Assembly (NCBI GenBank): GCA_040797845.1
Contig: JBFNFA010000002.1
Span: forward strand, 9,809 to 73,808
DNA from: Clostridiaceae bacterium
GTDB lineage: Bacteria > Bacillota > Clostridia > Clostridiales > Clostridiaceae
Length of the DNA: 64,000 nt
Reading direction: 5' to 3'
Part shown: piece by piece, positions 5,128 through 59,919 of the stretch
How the letters are laid out: each line of letters opens with the position of its first letter
Position numbering within the stretch: position 1 is the stretch's first letter
Notes under the pieces: generated by a model
What the model was told of the DNA's origin: nothing
Databases searched by the model: none
Seen by the model: only the letters and a program-made list of their open reading frames with translations
Position numbers and translations under genes: made by a program

Positions 5128-5324
5128 ATTTATCCCATGACTACCATCCGTAATACTCCCATTTTCTACAAGTGGGAGATATTAAAACTCTTGAGCTTCA
5201 GCGATTTAGAGTTCTTATGCTGTGCATAACGGATGCTACGTCCCTGGATAAGTTCTTCTAAGCTTCAGTTGGAGTAAGTATTCCTTTTAAACAAACCCCA
5301 TCTGAAGCTAAGAATCACTTGATA
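5128..5324. repeat. ~200-bp interspersed double-hairpin repeat (family X, copy 1), MITE-like
   Basis: Shares long identical blocks with 53835-54035 (ATGACTACCATCCGTAATACTCCCAT, ATAACGGATGCTACGTCCCTGGATAAGTTCTTCTAA, TAAGAATCACTTGATA); no ORF. Confidence 0.85.
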
Positions 5325-5423: not shown

Positions 5424-7277
5424 ATGAAGTTAGTTGTAAATAATTCATACACACCATCTCCAGTTAGAAATTATGTTAATAAAGCTATTCTCATATTTAA
5501 TGAAAATCGTATTTTTTTTCTTACCATATTATTTTTATTAATGAAATCCATATTGTTTCTTGGTTTTATCGCTTCTTCTTCTGGAAACTACATTGCACTT
5601 TTTAAACTACCTATATATTTAGTTAATTTTATACTATATATAAGCCTTATAACTATTTTTCTATCCGTTGGATATTTATTTAAAGGTTTAGGTCAAGCTT
5701 TAGCCTTTGTAACTATAAATCTTTTACTATCTTTATTTATGATAGCAGATCTTATATATTATAGAGGATTTCAAAGTTTTATTTCTATATATAGTTTATC
5801 TCAGGGAGGAAATTTAGATAACCTTGGTGAGACGATAATTTCAATGCTAAGATCACAGGACATATTATTTATTATTGATATTATAATATTTCTAGTTATA
5901 ATTCTAAGACAAAAGACTATTTATAGACAAGCTAAGAGGAAAGTTTCTTTGTTTTTCATTTTATTGATAGCAAGTAGTTCCCTATCTTTTTACTATCACT
6001 ACCGCTATGATATACTAGAAGATGGCAAAAACAAAAGATATTTTCATATATATTGGTCTCCTCTTTATAGTATGGGGAGCATGTCCCCTATAGGATATCA
6101 TATATACGATAGTTACCTATATTTTAAAAACTCAAAACAATTAGAGTTAACAGAAAAAGATCATGAGGAAATAAAAGCCTGGTATGAAAATAAGGAAAAG
6201 AATATTGAAGATAATTCCTATAAAGGAGCTTTAAAGGGGAAAAATTTAATATTTATGCAAATAGAATCATTAGAAAGTTTCTTAATAGGAGCAAAAGTGG
6301 ATGGAGAAGAGATAACTCCTAATTTAAATAAGCTATTAAAAAATTCCCTTCACTTTTCAGAAATATATGAACAGGTTAGCGGTGGAAATAGTTCAGATGG
6401 AGATCTAATGGCTAATACTTCCATGCATCCAGTAAAGAACGGCTCTACTTTTTTCCGTTTTCCAAAGAATAAATATAATTCTTTGCCTAGGCTCATGAAA
6501 AAGCTAGGTTATTATACCTCTGCTTTTCATCCAGATGGCGGTGGATATTGGAATTGGATGCCTGCTTTGCAATCTATGGAATTTGATAAATGCACTGATG
6601 TTACAGGATTTAAATTAGATGAGAGCATTGGCCTAGGACTTAGCGATGGAAGCTACTTAAAACAGCTGAGCGAAAAAATAATTTCTCAACCTAGACCTTT
6701 TTATTCTTTCTTCGTTACCTTAACAAGTCATATGCCTTTTGATCTACCAAAAGAATACAGGCATATGAAACTACCTGCTGAAATGGATAGCAATGTATTA
6801 GGTGACTATTTCCAGAGTATACACTATACAGACAAGCACTTAGGAAAATTTATAGATTCTTTAGAAGAAAGTGATTTATTAAAAGATACTGTACTAGTTA
6901 TTTACGGTGATCACACTGGTGTTCATAAATATTATAAGGATAAACTGGAGGCTATAAATCCAAAAGAAGATTGGTGGTATAAGGACAGCTTTAAAGTCCC
7001 TCTTATAATATATTCAAAGGATTTAGAAGGAAAAAGCTTCAAAACTATCGGTGGACAAGTGGATATAATGCCAACAGTAGCTTATCTTATGGGGGTACCT
7101 GAAGAAGAATTTATCAATACTGCTATGGGAAGAAATTTACTAAAAACCCGTAGAAATTTCACAATATTAAGCAACGGCGTATATATAGGTGACTATAAAA
7201 CTGAAGAAGAAAAACGTCACGCCGTAGAAGCTCTAAATATATCAGATAAACTTATCCGAAGCGGATATTTTAAATAA
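5424..7277 (+). CDS. LTA synthase family protein (sulfatase fold)
   Basis: N-terminal TM bundle; NLIFMQIESLE, EITPNLN, GGNSSDG, TLTSHMPF, YGDH. Confidence 0.9.
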   Translation: MKLVVNNSYTPSPVRNYVNKAILIFNENRIFFLTILFLLMKSILFLGFIASSSGNYIALFKLPIYLVNFILYISLITIFLSVGYLFKGLGQALAFVTINLLLSLFMIADLIYYRGFQSFISIYSLSQGGNLDNLGETIISMLRSQDILFIIDIIIFLVIILRQKTIYRQAKRKVSLFFILLIASSSLSFYYHYRYDILEDGKNKRYFHIYWSPLYSMGSMSPIGYHIYDSYLYFKNSKQLELTEKDHEEIKAWYENKEKNIEDNSYKGALKGKNLIFMQIESLESFLIGAKVDGEEITPNLNKLLKNSLHFSEIYEQVSGGNSSDGDLMANTSMHPVKNGSTFFRFPKNKYNSLPRLMKKLGYYTSAFHPDGGGYWNWMPALQSMEFDKCTDVTGFKLDESIGLGLSDGSYLKQLSEKIISQPRPFYSFFVTLTSHMPFDLPKEYRHMKLPAEMDSNVLGDYFQSIHYTDKHLGKFIDSLEESDLLKDTVLVIYGDHTGVHKYYKDKLEAINPKEDWWYKDSFKVPLIIYSKDLEGKSFKTIGGQVDIMPTVAYLMGVPEEEFINTAMGRNLLKTRRNFTILSNGVYIGDYKTEEEKRHAVEALNISDKLIRSGYFK

Positions 7278-7444: not shown

Positions 7445-9151
7445 TTATATCTTAAATTTAACTACTAATTCTCTTAATTCTTCAGAAATTTTTGCTTGAT
7501 ATTCTGCAGTAGTTTTTACTTTATCCATGTTTTCTGTTGTCTGCTCTACATTGGCTAAAATCTCTCCAGTAAAGGAAGCATTGCTTTGTGCACTACTAGC
7601 TATTTCATTTATTGCTGAACTTATTTGTTCTACTGTAGCGTTTATTTCCTCAGTCATAGAAGCTAAATCTTGAGACATATTATTTAAATAATCAGCGTCA
7701 TCACTGTACTGATTTCCTATTTTTATAAAGAACTCGAATTTTTCTTTTACTTGATTTTGAATAAAATCTAATATTTGTTGACTACTTTGTGATAAATTAG
7801 TGAAAGCTTCCTGTACTCTTCCTATGGTGATATGTATTGTAGCAACAGCTTCACTTGATTGTTCAGCAAGTTTTCTTACTTCCTCAGCTACTACAGAGAA
7901 TCCCTTTCCATGCTCTCCTGCCCTAGCAGCCTCAATTGCTGCATTAAGCGCCAGTAAGTTGGTCTGTTCAGAAATATTAGCTATAGTATTTGCCATAACT
8001 TTTATTTCTTCTACCACTTTTCCTTCCTCAATTGCTTTTAGAATATCTTTTTCATTTTCAGAATACATTTTATGAGTTTCATCATAGGCACTTTGTCCAT
8101 TTTTTTCGGCTTCTACTGCCCTCTCTTTTATCTCAATGGCATAACCACTTCCATTAACTGCTCTTTTTGATAATTCTTCCACACTTGAATCAACCTGGGT
8201 CATGGAAGCAGACATTTCTTCTGTAGTTGCACTCCACTCCTGAACTCCTTTATTTATCTCAATAGTTGAAGCGTTGATATCATTCATGCTTTCTGTCAAG
8301 TCTTCAACGGTAGCAAAAAGTTCTTCACTTGATTCAGATACATAATTGGAATCTTTAATTATTTTTTTAATTAATTTTTGCATATTATCTTTTGCATTAT
8401 TTAAAGATAGGGCGGTTATTCCAAACTCATCTTTTCTTTTAATTTGAATATCAGAGGAGAAATCATATTGAGAAAGTCTCTTAGCAAAATCTTGGATTCT
8501 ATTTAAAGGTTTTATAATATCAATACTCATAAGCACAATGAATATTATAGAAATTACTCCCCCTAGAACTGTAGCAATATTTATTAAATTTCTAGCTGCT
8601 AAATATATAGTTTCATTATTTTCATATTGCTTTAATGCCTCTAAATCATTTACTTCTACAACTTTATTTACACTATTAAAAGCATCTTCTCTTAATTTTA
8701 TCATCTCCGAATTATACAAATTAAGAGCTTCTTCATATTTATTTTCTTCCATAAGTTTTACTAACTGATTCTTATAATCTACATACACTTCATATTTATT
8801 TTTAAATTCTTCATAGAGCAACTTCTCATCTTCATTCATGTGAATTTTTTCATAAATTTTTAGTTGTTCTCCAATTTCTTCTTCTATATTTTTTAGTTGT
8901 TCACTACTTTCTGCTGTATTTTTTTCTAAAATTAAATATATTATATTTGCTCTCATATCATTAAAGCTTCCTTTTATATTTTCTAAGGATTTTATACTCT
9001 TTAAATTATTAGAATACATATTTTGAGCATTTTTATTAATGATATCTGTTCCTCTAATTCCCAAAAATCCTGTTACTATGACTAAAGCCGCAATAAGAGC
9101 AAAGCTAAGCAATAATTTGATTTTTACGCTAATATTTTTCCAAAAATTCAT
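7445..9151 (-). CDS. Methyl-accepting chemotaxis protein (4HB sensor, HAMP, MCP signal)
   Basis: Two TMs, [50 protein letters not shown]. Confidence 0.95.
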
Positions 9152-47715: not shown

Positions 47716-47734
47716 TAGTAAACACTTATTTATT

Positions 47735-48150
47735 GTACGCAACTTAAAAATGCTACGTAATGTGCCCTATGCATTTGAGCGAAATCTAGAAATTCTTAAT
47801 TTATTTTAGAGATTTTTATAAAATAAATTTTAGAAATTCTTATTGTAGCGAACTAGCATAAGAAGCATTATATAGCATTTTTTGTTTGTTGTAATACAAA
47901 ATTGTTTTCACATTTATAAGTTTTTACAAAGATAAATAGGTATCCAAAATGGGAACTGAGATACATAATGACGTCACTTCACAAAAGGCGTTCCTCCCAT
48001 TATATACCTCAGTTCCTTTATGTTTTACAGATATATTTTCACAGTTGTAAATTTCTACAGAGATAGTTTGTTGTATTAAATAGAGAGCTAAGCACATAGT
48101 GAAGTTGCTCCAGAAAAAAGTCACTTTTTCACTACATACTTAGCTCTTTT
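47735..48150 (-). repeat. Hairpin-array repeat (family H), locus 1: modules B, A1, A2
   Basis: B arms 47746-47762/47866-47882; A1 about 47952-48016; A2 arms 48084-48103/48128-48147; homologous to 51005-51374 and 58490-59919. Confidence 0.88.
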
Positions 48151-48246
48151 GTTTTTTATATCCATATTTTATTTATGCATTTACTACTATTTTAATGTTC
48201 ACACCTAATAAATGCTATTACAAGAATACTTAAGAATATTAAGATT

Positions 48247-50766: not shown

Positions 50767-51004
50767 AACATACCCTCCTTTTTTTAAATATAATAAATAT
50801 AATTAGTTAATACGATTAACTAATTCTTTATTATTACTTTATATTATTCCACAGATTCCAAATGATTCCTTCATATAACAGAATTTTCAAAAAACTTTTT
50901 TTTAACAATCTCTGCGATTTTATATTGCATAATTCTTATATATCAGTTGATATTTGTAGAACCTTTAGATTGTTTTTTCAAATATGAGTTCCCACAAAAT
51001 TAAC

Positions 51005-51374
51005 TAGGTATCAAAAGGGAACTAAGTACATAATGACGTCACGTCACAAAAGGCGATCCTCCCATTATATACTTAGTTCCTTTATGTTCCACAGATGCAT
51101 TTTCAAATTTATATTGTGCCGAATTGATTTCTAAAATATAAATTTCTACAAAGATAATTTAGTTTTACAAATGAAGAGCTAAATACATAGGTGAAGCGCT
51201 CCAGAAAAAGTCACTATTTCACTACATACTTAGCTCTTTTGTTTTTAGAAATATATTTTTAAATTTATATTATGACAGTTTAATTTGCTAAATATTAATT
51301 TTTATAATTTCATTGGGTAAAACTTAAAAATGCTACGTAATGTGACCTATGCATTTAAGCAAGATCTAGAAATT
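51005..51374 (-). repeat. Hairpin-array repeat (family H), locus 2: A1, A2, C, first half of B
   Basis: A1 51018-51080; A2 51175-51237; C from 51261; B left half 51321-51374, ending at the DUF4358 stop codon. Confidence 0.88.
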
Positions 51375-51843
51375 ATTTAAAATATCCATCGAAAATACTT
51401 TCTATTTTTTCACTATCCTCTGAAATAATAAATAATATATATCTACCGTTGTTCTTTAATGTATAGTTTTTTGCATTTTCATATTGATCTGGCAGATACG
51501 TTTCAAAGGTTTTTTGTACATCACCTGCACGCTTCTTTATTCCTTCAACTACTTCATCAACGTTTTTTTCATCTTTTACTTTAATTATCGCTAATTCATC
51601 TGCTTTTACATTCATTAATGGGATTTGAACAACAAACTCTTCTATAATATCAGGGTTAACGTAGTATTTTTCTTTTACTTCTTCCTCTTTTAGCTCTACC
51701 ATAGGTGAACTTTCTACCTCATCTTTAATTTTTTCCGCTATTTCTCTAACTGACACATTTACTTCTTTCGTAGTTTTGCCACATCCAAATAGTGAAAGTA
51801 AACTTACAATTAAAAGTAAGAATATAAGTACTTTTTTATTCAC
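51373..51843 (-). CDS. DUF4358 family lipoprotein
   Basis: GGAGGAG SD, GTG at 51843, lipobox LFGC, ADELAIIKVKD, FETYLPDQY. Confidence 0.8.
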   Translation of the reverse strand: MNKKVLIFLLLIVSLLSLFGCGKTTKEVNVSVREIAEKIKDEVESSPMVELKEEEVKEKYYVNPDIIEEFVVQIPLMNVKADELAIIKVKDEKNVDEVVEGIKKRAGDVQKTFETYLPDQYENAKNYTLKNNGRYILFIISEDSEKIESIFDGYFK

Positions 51844-53834: not shown

Positions 53835-54035
53835 ATTTATCCGATGACTACCATCCGTAATACTCCCATCGCACTCTGTGAAAGCGATTCACATAAAATC
53901 AAAGATTTTAGTTCTCTGCTTTTCTACAAGTGAAATATAACGGATGCTACGTCCCTGGATAAGTTCTTCTAATCTTCAGCTGGAGTAAGTATTCCTTTTA
54001 AGAAAACTCCATCTAAACCTAAGAATCACTTGATA
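53835..54035. repeat. ~200-bp interspersed double-hairpin repeat (family X, copy 2) with a 51-bp nested insert
   Basis: Homologous to 5128-5324; extra block 53870-53920. Confidence 0.85.
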
Positions 54036-58489: not shown

Positions 58490-58746
58490 TCAGTATTCAA
58501 AAGGGGAACTAAGTACATAATGACGTCGTTTCAAAAAGGCACTCCTCCCATTATATACTTAGTTCCTTTATATTTTAAAAATGTATTTTCAAATATAAAT
58601 TTCTACAAGAACAATTTAGTTTTACAAATATAGAGCTAAATATGTAGTGAAGCCGCTCCAATAAAAAGTCGCTTTTTCACTACATACTTAGCTCTTTTGT
58701 ATTTTACAAATATATTTTCAGAATTAGGTTATGACAGATTAGTTTT
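58490..58746 (-). repeat. Hairpin-array repeat (family H), locus 3 left part: A1, A2, C
   Basis: A1 58505-58566; A2 arms 58632-58651/58676-58695; C ends with TTATGACAGATTAGTTT at 58729-58745. Confidence 0.88.
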
Positions 58747-58813
58747 CAACTTGTAATTTTTACAAAAAATATTTGAGTATTCAAAACGAGGATTGAAGCA
58801 CATAACAATTCTC

Positions 58814-59032
58814 TTAAAGGTACTTTTTCAATTCATCTAAGCTATCAATATCAAATATATCCGTAGCTATAACATCAATAGTCTCTTCATCTAAAGCCTT
58901 TATCCTTTGTTTATATTCCTCGGGAATAGATTTAAATTTTTTTATAAGTTGTTTTATAAGAATTTCTGCCTTGCCTTCTTTCATTCCTTCTTTTACTCCG
59001 TCTTCCCTCAACATCTTTCCTATTTCAGTCAT
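58814..59032 (-). CDS. Predicted in-frame internal 72-aa protein (RpnS-like)
   Basis: AAGGAG (59042-59047) lies 9 nt before the ATG at 59032: MTEIGKMLREDG...DELKKYL. Confidence 0.6.
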   Translation of the reverse strand: MTEIGKMLREDGVKEGMKEGKAEILIKQLIKKFKSIPEEYKQRIKALDEETIDVIATDIFDIDSLDELKKYL

Positions 59033-59680
59033 GGACACCAACTCCTTAAATTTTATTTTTGATAATTCATCTCCAAACTTATCAAATAAAGCATATAATA
59101 AGCTTAAACATTGCAATTTTTCATTGCCCTCAGGCATTTTACCTGCTAATTCTATACTGTCTAAGGTTCTTTTGCTTCTACTTTCTTTTCCTCTCATCAA
59201 AGGTATAAAACTTAGTGCTACTATATCTTCACCATTTAAAGTTTCTTCTCTTTCTATCTTATTCTTTAAATACTCCAACTTTTCATCTCCATCTAAGTTT
59301 TTCATATAAAAAGCTTCTATTTCATATTTTATAGTTCCTGCATCTATATAGGTTTCAACATCCTCTATATCCGCTGAATAAATTACTATGGTTCTTATTT
59401 TTCTCTTTTCCTTATAAAAAAGTGATGCATCATAATATAAGAATCTCTTAATATCTTCTTTTTTATCCGTAGTTTGAAATTCAAAATGTAGATAGTTTCC
59501 ATCTTCTGTGTAAAAAAGATAGTCAGTATAGTTAGTTTTAATGTCTATGTTCTTTATTTCAGTTTCTGCCGGAGCTACTATTTTAGTGTCTATACCAAAA
59601 AATTTCACCGCATTATCTTTAAAGAATTCCATAGCCTTTTTTAAAACTGCATCTTCTACTTTATTATAATCCATACTCAT
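58814..59680 (-). CDS. Rpn/YhgA-like PD-(D/E)XK nuclease with C-terminal DUF4351
   Basis: TDYLF...LHFEFQ catalytic-type motif, RFLYY, GVKEGMKEGKAEILIKQLIKKF tail. SD spacing may favour the second Met (59674). Confidence 0.82.
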   Translation of the reverse strand: MSMDYNKVEDAVLKKAMEFFKDNAVKFFGIDTKIVAPAETEIKNIDIKTNYTDYLFYTEDGNYLHFEFQTTDKKEDIKRFLYYDASLFYKEKRKIRTIVIYSADIEDVETYIDAGTIKYEIEAFYMKNLDGDEKLEYLKNKIEREETLNGEDIVALSFIPLMRGKESRSKRTLDSIELAGKMPEGNEKLQCLSLLYALFDKFGDELSKIKFKELVSMTEIGKMLREDGVKEGMKEGKAEILIKQLIKKFKSIPEEYKQRIKALDEETIDVIATDIFDIDSLDELKKYL

Positions 59681-59748
59681 CCTCTCTTTCTACTGGTAAT
59701 TAAATATTAGGTATATACCATATTATTTCCAATAGGAAAAGATTTATG

Positions 59749-59762
59749 CGAATGTATGTTCG
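59749..59762. promoter_or_regulatory. LexA (SOS/Cheo) box upstream of the rpn gene
   Basis: CGAATGTATGTTCG matches CGAACRNRYGTTYG at 13/14; about 70 nt upstream of the start. Confidence 0.7.
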
Positions 59763-59919
59763 AAATTTATATTATGACGGATTAGTTTATCAAATATTAG
59801 TTCTTATAATTTATTGTATAAAACTTAAAACTGCTATGTAATGTACTCTATGCAATTGATTAAAATCTAGAAATTCTTATTACAACAAGACAGCATAAGA
59901 GGCATTATGTAACATTTTT
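59763..59919 (-). repeat. Hairpin-array repeat (family H), locus 3 right part: C, B
   Basis: 59763-59878 aligns with 51261-51374; full B hairpin 59821-59919 aligns with 47741-47882. Confidence 0.85.

Follow-up and report, generated by a model that had tools for sequence, protein, structure and literature searches.

The question raised by this locus is whether a nuclease-like gene that lies inside an array of hairpin repeats constitutes, together with these repeats, a mobile system of its own, or whether it is cargo that has been moved into and out of the array by other means. The gene, here called rpn, is located in a window of 64,000 nucleotides (positions 9809-73808 of contig C2) that belongs to a 4.06-Mb Clostridium genome with a G+C content of 30%, designated G000. 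This genome is an assembly from a subsurface metagenome. The repeat modules are collectively termed H, and positions refer to the window unless a contig is given. The features on which the argument rests are listed below, with identities given relative to the orthologous array of the sister species G001.

47728-48180, plus strand: third H array of the window
50950-51385, plus strand: paralogous H array with the order A-linker-B-linker-C
58503-58566, plus strand: hairpin of H module A; 18-bp stem, folding energy -17.7 kcal/mol; absent from the orthologous array of G001
58632-58695, plus strand: hairpin of H module B; folding energy -22.3 kcal/mol; 86% identical to G001
58701-58745, plus strand: left linker unit, containing the left 17-mer core (58729-58745)
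58746-58810, plus strand: leader of an A module and truncated 5' arm of an A hairpin (58790-58806); 97% identical to G001
58814-59680, minus strand: rpn-like gene of 288 aa with an N-terminal PD-(D/E)XK-like domain, an x-K-E-G repeat and a C-terminal DUF4351/RpnS domain
58814-59032, minus strand: internal 72-aa open reading frame (M217-L288) with AAGGAG-N9-ATG in front; candidate RpnS-type antitoxin
59681-59762, minus strand: rpn's own upstream region, with the LexA (Cheo) box CGAATGTATGTTCG at its end (59749-59762)
59763-59810, plus strand: right linker unit, containing the right 17-mer core (59772-59788)
59811-59879, plus strand: H module C; 81% identical to G001

The initial annotation had described 17-nt direct repeats on either side of ~1 kb of sequence carrying rpn, and both were recovered. 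The left copy TTATGACAGATTAGTTT at 58729-58745 and the right copy TTATGACGGATTAGTTT at 59772-59788 are identical at 16 of 17 positions and spaced by 1,043 bp, with one 867-nt open reading frame between them on the minus strand (58814-59680). The similarity of the two flanks spans ~70 nt, with a much lower identity outside the 17-mer core, and no inverted repeat was found to bracket the ~1-kb unit. Genome-wide, the 17-mer was present in four exact copies, in eight copies with at most one mismatch and in 25 copies with at most two, 24 of which (at the two-mismatch limit) lay within H loci, where it represents the best-conserved core of the H linker. The two copies beside rpn are the conserved cores of two different, adjacent linker units of one H array, one leading into an A module and the other into a C module. 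Since the 17-mer is the multi-copy core of a dispersed linker, it is neither a target-site duplication nor the footprint of an insertion. Comparison with the canonical linker-to-A junction at C2:139095-139165 of G000 was used to interpret the segment 58746-58810, which is H-derived sequence that moves with the cassette. The cassette is the 1,043-bp stretch 58720-59762 and comprises rpn, its upstream region with the LexA box and a stub of H sequence, the last consisting of the linker core, the leader of an A module and half of one A hairpin arm. The B hairpin at 58632-58695 is positioned directly 3' of the cassette on the sense strand of rpn.

The protein was assigned to a family on the basis of several lines of evidence. 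DUF4351 (PF14261) was its sole Pfam match (residues 230-288, E 9e-12), and neither Transposase_31 nor PDDEXK_2 nor any NCBIfam model matched the N-terminal domain in searches of Pfam and NCBIfam; a PDB sequence profile search returned nothing. Homologues are named 'DUF4351 domain-containing protein' in the databases, and a few JGI records refer to them as 'predicted transposase/invertase (TIGR01784 family)'. In Rpn nucleases, DUF4351 represents the RpnS antitoxin domain, and it also makes up the stand-alone RpnS genes (Zhong et al., PMC10400941). Residues D51, E65 and Q67 were invariant in 26 homologues (D..HFEFQ motif, D...E-x-Q), and hhalign aligned YLHFEFQT..R.LYY of rpn with YVLMEFQS..R.LFY of a Transposase_31 protein from the same genome, at a probability of only 35%. 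The best PDB matches of the AF2 model (pLDDT 78) were PD-(D/E)XK nucleases, all below significance; in Foldseek, these were EndoMS/NucS (probability 1.00, E 0.04), Cap4, Kpn2I and McrC, none of them significant. The x-K-E-G repeat coincides with a low-pLDDT stretch (221-233) and varies in length, reading VKEG-MKEG-KAE in G000 (288 aa) versus VKEG-LKEG-IKKG-KEEG-KSE in the orthologue from the sister species G003 (297 aa). The sequence AAGGAG-N9-ATG is found upstream of M217, before the last 72 codons, and the open reading frame M217-L288 is a candidate antitoxin of the RpnS type, following the concept of PMC10400941. In view of the DUF4351 domain, the motif, the fold, the x-K-E-G repeat and the internal SD-ATG, the gene was therefore accepted as a divergent member of the RpnL/RpnS-type family, with matches to the catalytic domain that are weak or below significance. 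It may have a toxin/antitoxin or defence role.

The repeats were characterized with the modules of the array at 50950-51385 as queries. A BLAST search of the whole genome yielded 106 merged H loci covering 22 kb, with ~40 copies of hairpin A, ~80 of hairpin B, ~40 of module C and 27-67 of the two linker types. Only 4 of 3,734 ORF-genes were overlapped by H, and nearly all of the loci are thus intergenic; 3' ends of genes were their more frequent neighbours (86 genes, compared with 52 for 5' ends), and regions between divergent genes were avoided. The modules are ordered but variable in number, with module insertions and deletions between species. For the array beside rpn, the folding energies of the A and B hairpins are -18 to -22 kcal/mol; genome-wide, folding as RNA favours the minus strand of the module by 5-6 kcal/mol, in 33 of 38 copies of A and 63 of 73 of B. 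An Rfam scan of 47-60.2 kb gave no family covering the modules. Among 60 relatives scored, H was restricted to the genus of the window; it is abundant in G001 and G003, is represented by ~4 modules in a further species, G002, and was absent from the other 56 relatives except for one marginal match. H is a family of modular intergenic repeats of the BOX/BIME-like kind, restricted to one genus and present at ~100 loci per genome.

Filled and empty forms of the locus had been postulated, with an array 8 kb away regarded as the empty site. The modules of that array do run unbroken, in the order B-linker-C at 51140-51380, but it is a paralogous array and not an allele. The orthologous empty site was identified by comparing four species of the genus (G000, G001, G002 and G003), of which G003 is the closest to G000 and G001 is more distant. 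In G003, whose database entry has the isolate-style name Clostridium sp. MSJ-11, an intact B-linker-C-D array with one linker and without rpn was found at C4:56883-57374, between the same glucosaminidase and MCP genes, which are ~490 bp apart; the flanks are 93-94% identical to those of G000. The left flank of the window aligns to this empty site up to position 58765 and the right flank from about 59751-59763. In G001 (flanks ~88-89% identical), by contrast, the cassette is present at the orthologous position and its junctions are the same; module A is missing. The postulate of filled and empty forms was thus borne out at orthologous positions.

The history of the cassette differs from that of its surroundings. 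Between G000 and G001, dS was 0.17 for rpn versus 0.40-0.45 for each of four flanking genes; between G000 and G003, it was 0.27 for the flanks and 0.63 for rpn compared with a relocated copy in G003. Owing to this discordance, the gene tree and the species tree disagree. A block of low divergence, from 58701 to ~59810, showed 46 differences at 1,111 positions between G000 and G001 (~96% identity), whereas 12 differences at 87 positions were counted in the adjoining B hairpin and 14 at 74 in module C. The block ends in the two linker copies; beyond them, identity falls to 81-89% in the adjacent B and C modules and in the flanking genes. As the low divergence is confined to the stretch from linker to linker, the history of this unit must be younger than that of the surrounding array and genes, and the unit appears to have been exchanged between lineages after their split. 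It is more likely that the G003 site was never filled than that it was secondarily emptied. At this site, the 9 nt to the left of the 17-mer are matched by the right-hand copy but differ from the left-hand copy. A crossover exactly within the 17-mer was ruled out on these grounds, because a simple exchange in the core fails to give an empty site in which these 9 nt resemble the right copy. In assembled contigs of the source metagenome, neither a recombination intermediate nor an empty junction within the population was observed; the excision joints that they seemed to contain trace back to paralogous H arrays (85% likeness), carry no information on excision and were discarded.

The gene also occurs in other surroundings. 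The G003 orthologue (83% nucleotide identity) lies between different genes; a B hairpin follows on the 3' side along with a degenerate linker, linker-like sequence abuts the LexA box, and the relocated unit is flanked by an imperfect ~50-nt direct repeat of the H 'leader'; the matching site in G000 (C8:1954-2176) is without rpn. Three further unrelated contexts were provided by L015, by L028/L029 and by L030, and the metagenomic homologues among them (L028-L030, 79-83% identical) account for two of these contexts and have no H module. In G018, a member of another genus, the unit duplicated between two copies consists of the coding sequence and ~100 nt upstream only, and its flanks are not repeated elsewhere in the G018 genome; this unit would correspond to the compact form, rpn proper, deduced for G000. 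Neither H nor another dispersed repeat was found at the flanks of genes of this Rpn subfamily from other species and from other genera, and a hairpin search in the flanks of homologues from other genera revealed ordinary terminator-like stems only. The family is also represented on plasmids of other clostridia and in one phage record. In G028, 15 matches were obtained, many at contig ends; the copies differ by 2-15%, contigs are interrupted within the gene, and the ends of an element could not be defined from them. Exchange at H loci is not limited to rpn: the array at 50950-51385 is conserved in G003 but replaced in G001 by a gene pair encoding a TetR-like protein and a hydrolase, and a two-gene segment in G003 is bounded by ~35-nt direct repeats. 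Intergenic regions bearing H turn over generally, with other cargo as well.

The initial annotation had recommended counting the rpn paralogues embedded in H modules. G000 carries one full copy of rpn and a 43-aa fragment, and its intact genes of the Rpn superfamily are two in number, the focal rpn and a Transposase_31 gene at C2:139434-140471. Both of them, as well as one remnant, adjoin H. A gene was scored as H-flanked if H was present within 150 nt of its stop codon and within 300 nt of its start codon. By this definition, H lies on both sides of 8 of 3,734 ORF-genes, and both intact Rpn genes are among these 8 (hypergeometric probability ~4e-6 genome-wide and ~1.6e-4 within the H-dense 235-kb region C2:55-290 kb, in both cases with thresholds set after viewing the data). 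Many ordinary genes are bracketed by H as well, including those for a secreted deacetylase, a glycosyltransferase, a hydrolase and membrane proteins. A terminator-like stem of its own accompanies the Transposase_31 gene. G001 and G002 have neither this gene nor the H modules that flank it; at its site, G001 has kept only a short linker-B array. The 43-aa DUF4351 open reading frame (C11:29192-29320) adjoins a B hairpin and is what remains of a paralogue whose full-length form G003 has kept intact, its nuclease part having been lost by a clean deletion of 835 bp. In G003, all three Rpn-type genes, including a 39%-identical paralogue and the relocated orthologue, have a B hairpin beside their stop codon. 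G002, with its ~4 H modules, contains only decayed Rpn genes and none that is intact. More than 95% of the H loci are without rpn, and the orientation of H relative to the gene and the positions of the junctions vary between the Rpn loci.

The upstream region of rpn contains a possible regulatory link. CGAATGTATGTTCG (59749-59762) fits the Cheo-type box CGAAC-N4-GTTCG, for which seven sites with at most one mismatch were detected in 4.06 Mb, six of them besides that of rpn. Of the seven, only those of recA and rpn fall within the 200 nt that precede a gene. A palindrome occupies the same upstream position in the G003 copy as well as in L028 and L030, two homologues that lack H. The LexA box suggests that rpn itself may be under SOS control. 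The right linker was considered as a TTGATA-N17-TATAAA promoter for rpn; this candidate was dismissed, as promoter-like sites in a consensus scan exceeded shuffled controls by no more than ~2 sd in this AT-rich DNA.

On balance, rpn is probably mobile cargo, with short-homology recombination at H linkers accounting for both its gain and its loss. Within one genome, recombination from linker to linker would delete the cassette and leave B-linker-C; between lineages, imported DNA would recombine at the same linkers. The gene would then hitch-hike on portable homology instead of acting as a transposase with its own ends, and its nuclease may or may not contribute to the exchanges that this mechanism supposes. 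As the best-supported reading, it fits the published view of rpn as horizontally mobile but non-autonomous, in which the genes move singly, without TIR or TSD and with variable ends, probably via recombination or hitch-hiking (PMC10400941); the gain and loss of single rpn genes without terminal repeats has already been reported in that study. Descent without any mobility was weighed against it, with an ancestral gene at the site that was deleted in G003 by slippage or recombination between neighbouring linkers, the repeats being incidental. Such a history would explain why the filled allele with identical junctions is common to G000 and the more distant G001 and why the G003 site is exactly B-linker-C, and deletion occurs readily between direct repeats of 17-26 nt. 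It is nevertheless quite unlikely: vertical descent is disfavoured because it does not predict a dS for rpn between G000 and G001 (0.17) that is below that of the G000-G003 flanks (0.27), let alone far below that of the G000-G001 flanks (0.40-0.45), and the confinement of the low-divergence block to the linkers and the presence of the gene at other loci in relatives also argue against it. Classical transposition, in which the transposase of a ~1-kb insertion sequence made a 17-bp target-site duplication, owes its appeal to the historical annotation of the family as 'putative transposase', to the JGI name TIGR01784 and to the direct repeats flanking the unit. It is effectively refuted by the lack of detectable terminal inverted repeats, the single copy in the genome (plus the 43-aa fragment) and a supposed duplication that pre-exists as a multi-copy sub-module of the array within ~70 nt of imperfect similarity; moreover, an autonomous PD-(D/E)XK transposase is not known (PMC10400941).

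The possibility closest to the initial annotation, which had combined the H array and rpn into one mobile or recombinogenic unit, is that the Rpn nuclease recognises the H linker core or its hairpin/cruciform and spreads or rearranges H in trans, its own gene lying among these elements. It draws on the presence of both intact Rpn genes among the eight H-flanked ones, the B hairpins beside the DUF4351 remnant and beside the stop codons of all three Rpn-type genes in G003, and the presence/absence of both Rpn loci in sister species, where the empty alleles keep H modules; the lack of an intact Rpn gene in G002, with its few H modules, lends it weak support. Against this stand the wide distribution of the subfamily as opposed to the restriction of H to a single genus in a set of 60 relatives, the absence of H and of any other dispersed repeat from the flanks both of L028-L030 (79-83% identical) and of homologues in other genera, an H family of which more than 95% of loci lack rpn, junctions and H orientations that differ between loci, flanking repeats that are direct and not inverted, and distance thresholds for the enrichment that were picked after viewing the data. 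Published work, in addition, gives Rpn no autonomous mobility (PMC10400941). We consider such a partnership unlikely, and it is rather unlikely that, in a more specific version, SOS-induced Rpn cuts H linkers or extruded hairpins and drives RecA-independent exchange of cassettes at ~100 sites, that of its own gene included. What stands of the earlier proposal is a discrete ~1-kb block that is present or absent and recurs in other contexts; the idea of a dedicated system of H and rpn is not supported, given ~100 H loci without rpn, the restriction of H to one genus and homologues elsewhere without H. Besides the 9 nt beside the 17-mer in G003, two observations sit less comfortably with the reading of rpn as cargo of the linkers. 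If generic homologous recombination were at work, it would be surprising for both crossovers to fall within ~50 nt of the cassette, which hints at a more site-specific process, and the enrichment of Rpn genes among H-flanked genes is unpredicted by pure hitch-hiking, unless H arrays are general hot spots of gene acquisition.

Toxic enzymes with links to defence, Rpn nucleases are widespread. In the published view, their genes move singly with undefined ends, whereas here the boundaries are defined and lie in a multi-copy repeat unit. The locus is an unusually clean case in that it combines a filled/empty pair, boundaries in linkers, incongruent divergence and a LexA box shared with recA only. 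If H only supplies portable homology, the locus documents the hitch-hiking of defence genes and adds a clostridial family to the BOX/BIME-like repeats. If the nuclease did act on H, these repeats would be the missing natural substrate of the Rpn family, and the pair would constitute a PD-(D/E)XK counterpart of RAYT-REP.

Among known repeats, H most closely resembles the pneumococcal BOX elements, modular MITE-like repeats with the structure boxA-boxB(n)-boxC. Like these, it consists of ordered modules (A, B, C and linkers), is intergenic, contains hairpins and occupies ~100 loci per genome. The sequences of the two families are unrelated, however, and the hairpins of H are strongly strand-asymmetric in RNA folding. 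To our knowledge, no mobilising enzyme has been described for either family. REP/BIME repeats, which also form composite arrays, offer a parallel that includes an enzyme: in REPtrons, the RAYT gene is found among copies of an otherwise gene-less intergenic hairpin repeat, as is rpn. RAYT, though, is a HUH Y1 transposase, whereas the enzyme encoded here is predicted to be a PD-(D/E)XK nuclease, and the repeats that flank it are direct instead of inverted. Of the features by which REPtrons are recognized, an enzyme gene flanked by the repeat was found, but co-occurrence across genomes was not, as enzyme and H are found together in one genus only; an action of the enzyme on H is a proposal.

The gene itself compares most closely with the Rpn genes of E. 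coli (RpnA-E, RpnP2; PMC5350276, PMC10400941). These encode a PD-(D/E)XK-type N-terminal domain with E-x-Q, which is predicted for the present gene as well. Like it, they also encode a C-terminal DUF4351/RpnS domain preceded by an internal SD-ATG, differ between orthologues in the number of a 4-residue repeat and are present or absent sporadically as single genes, without TIR or TSD (PMC5350276, PMC10400941). Both groups further share a stand-alone RpnS-like open reading frame elsewhere in the genome and copies on plasmids, in the present family those of other clostridia. The gene described here departs from known Rpn in that it matches neither Transposase_31 nor PDDEXK_2 nor an NCBIfam model, and in its LexA box; LexA is not mentioned in PMC5350276 and PMC10400941, where it is the overexpression of Rpn that induces the SOS response. 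It differs, finally, in that the boundaries of its cassette fall in a defined dispersed repeat, and it is this that is new here: an Rpn cassette with defined boundaries that lie in units of a new BOX/BIME-like family.

In the genome of the window (G000), the LexA/Cheo box CGAATGTATGTTCG was found less than 200 nt upstream of a gene, allowing at most one mismatch, only at recA and at the focal rpn gene.

Window 59749-59762: LexA/Cheo box, upstream of rpn.

A palindrome is retained at the position of this box in rpn homologues located in other contexts. The adjacent right linker of the H repeat family (window 59763-59794), when read on the minus strand, contains the promoter-like sequence TTGATA-N17-TATAAA, whose spacer is exactly the 17-mer forming the conserved linker core and which is directly followed by the LexA box. 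Because promoter-like sites are frequent in this AT-rich DNA, this promoter is regarded as putative.

Intergenic regions carrying H are, in general, hot spots for the turnover of genes. At the site corresponding to the locus-2 H array (window 50950-51385), the more distant sister species G001 carries genes for a TetR-like regulator and an alpha/beta-hydrolase in place of the array, and its segment (C17:16264-18012) contains no H module. Two further Rpn-type loci of G000, both outside the window, adjoin H sequences.

G000 C11:29192-29320: stand-alone DUF4351 ORF of 43 aa.
G000 C2:139434-140471: genuine Transposase_31 Rpn gene, flanked on each side by H arrays.

The short ORF is a remnant of a full-length Rpn paralogue, which is intact in the closest sister species, G003 (C1:734905-735774); a clean 835-bp deletion has removed the nuclease part while leaving the RpnS-like end, which is adjoined by an H module B hairpin. 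The Transposase_31 gene, which includes a run of (I/x)KEG four-residue repeats, is missing from G001 and the sister species G002 together with most of its flanking H sequences, with a short linker-B array alone remaining at the site in G001.

When the minus strand of the module was folded as RNA, hairpins A and B were 5-6 kcal/mol more stable, an advantage observed genome-wide for 33 of the 38 copies of hairpin A and 63 of 73 copies of hairpin B, with no such asymmetry for module C among the H copies of the genome. This strand asymmetry suggests RNA-level selection.

Window 58503-58566 and 58632-58695: examples of H hairpins A and B.

Two other insertion-like segments were noted.

L015 (from G003 C1), bounds at L015 positions 6225-6260 and 7985-8030: two-gene segment adjoining the G003 rpn copy.
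Window 53840-54030: element of ~190 bp.

The two-gene segment is a further cassette-like insertion between short direct repeats, which are ~35 nt long (AAAGATRTTCATTATATAATAAAA..ACAGTTA), not H-derived and represented in G000 by a single copy. The ~190-bp element appears to be a MITE-like element that inserted recently: G001 and G003 both lack it at the orthologous site, dozens of copies with 78-100% identity occur in each of G000, G001 and G003, and the window contains another copy at 5226-5324. Rfam returned only a sub-threshold tpke11 match nearby.

In other genera, the focal Rpn subfamily forms a cluster of five paralogues within 22 kb in one relative (G020 C6:801-823 kb) and many diverged copies (15 matches) on many short contigs in another (G028). 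Both arrangements are similar to published rpn arrays.
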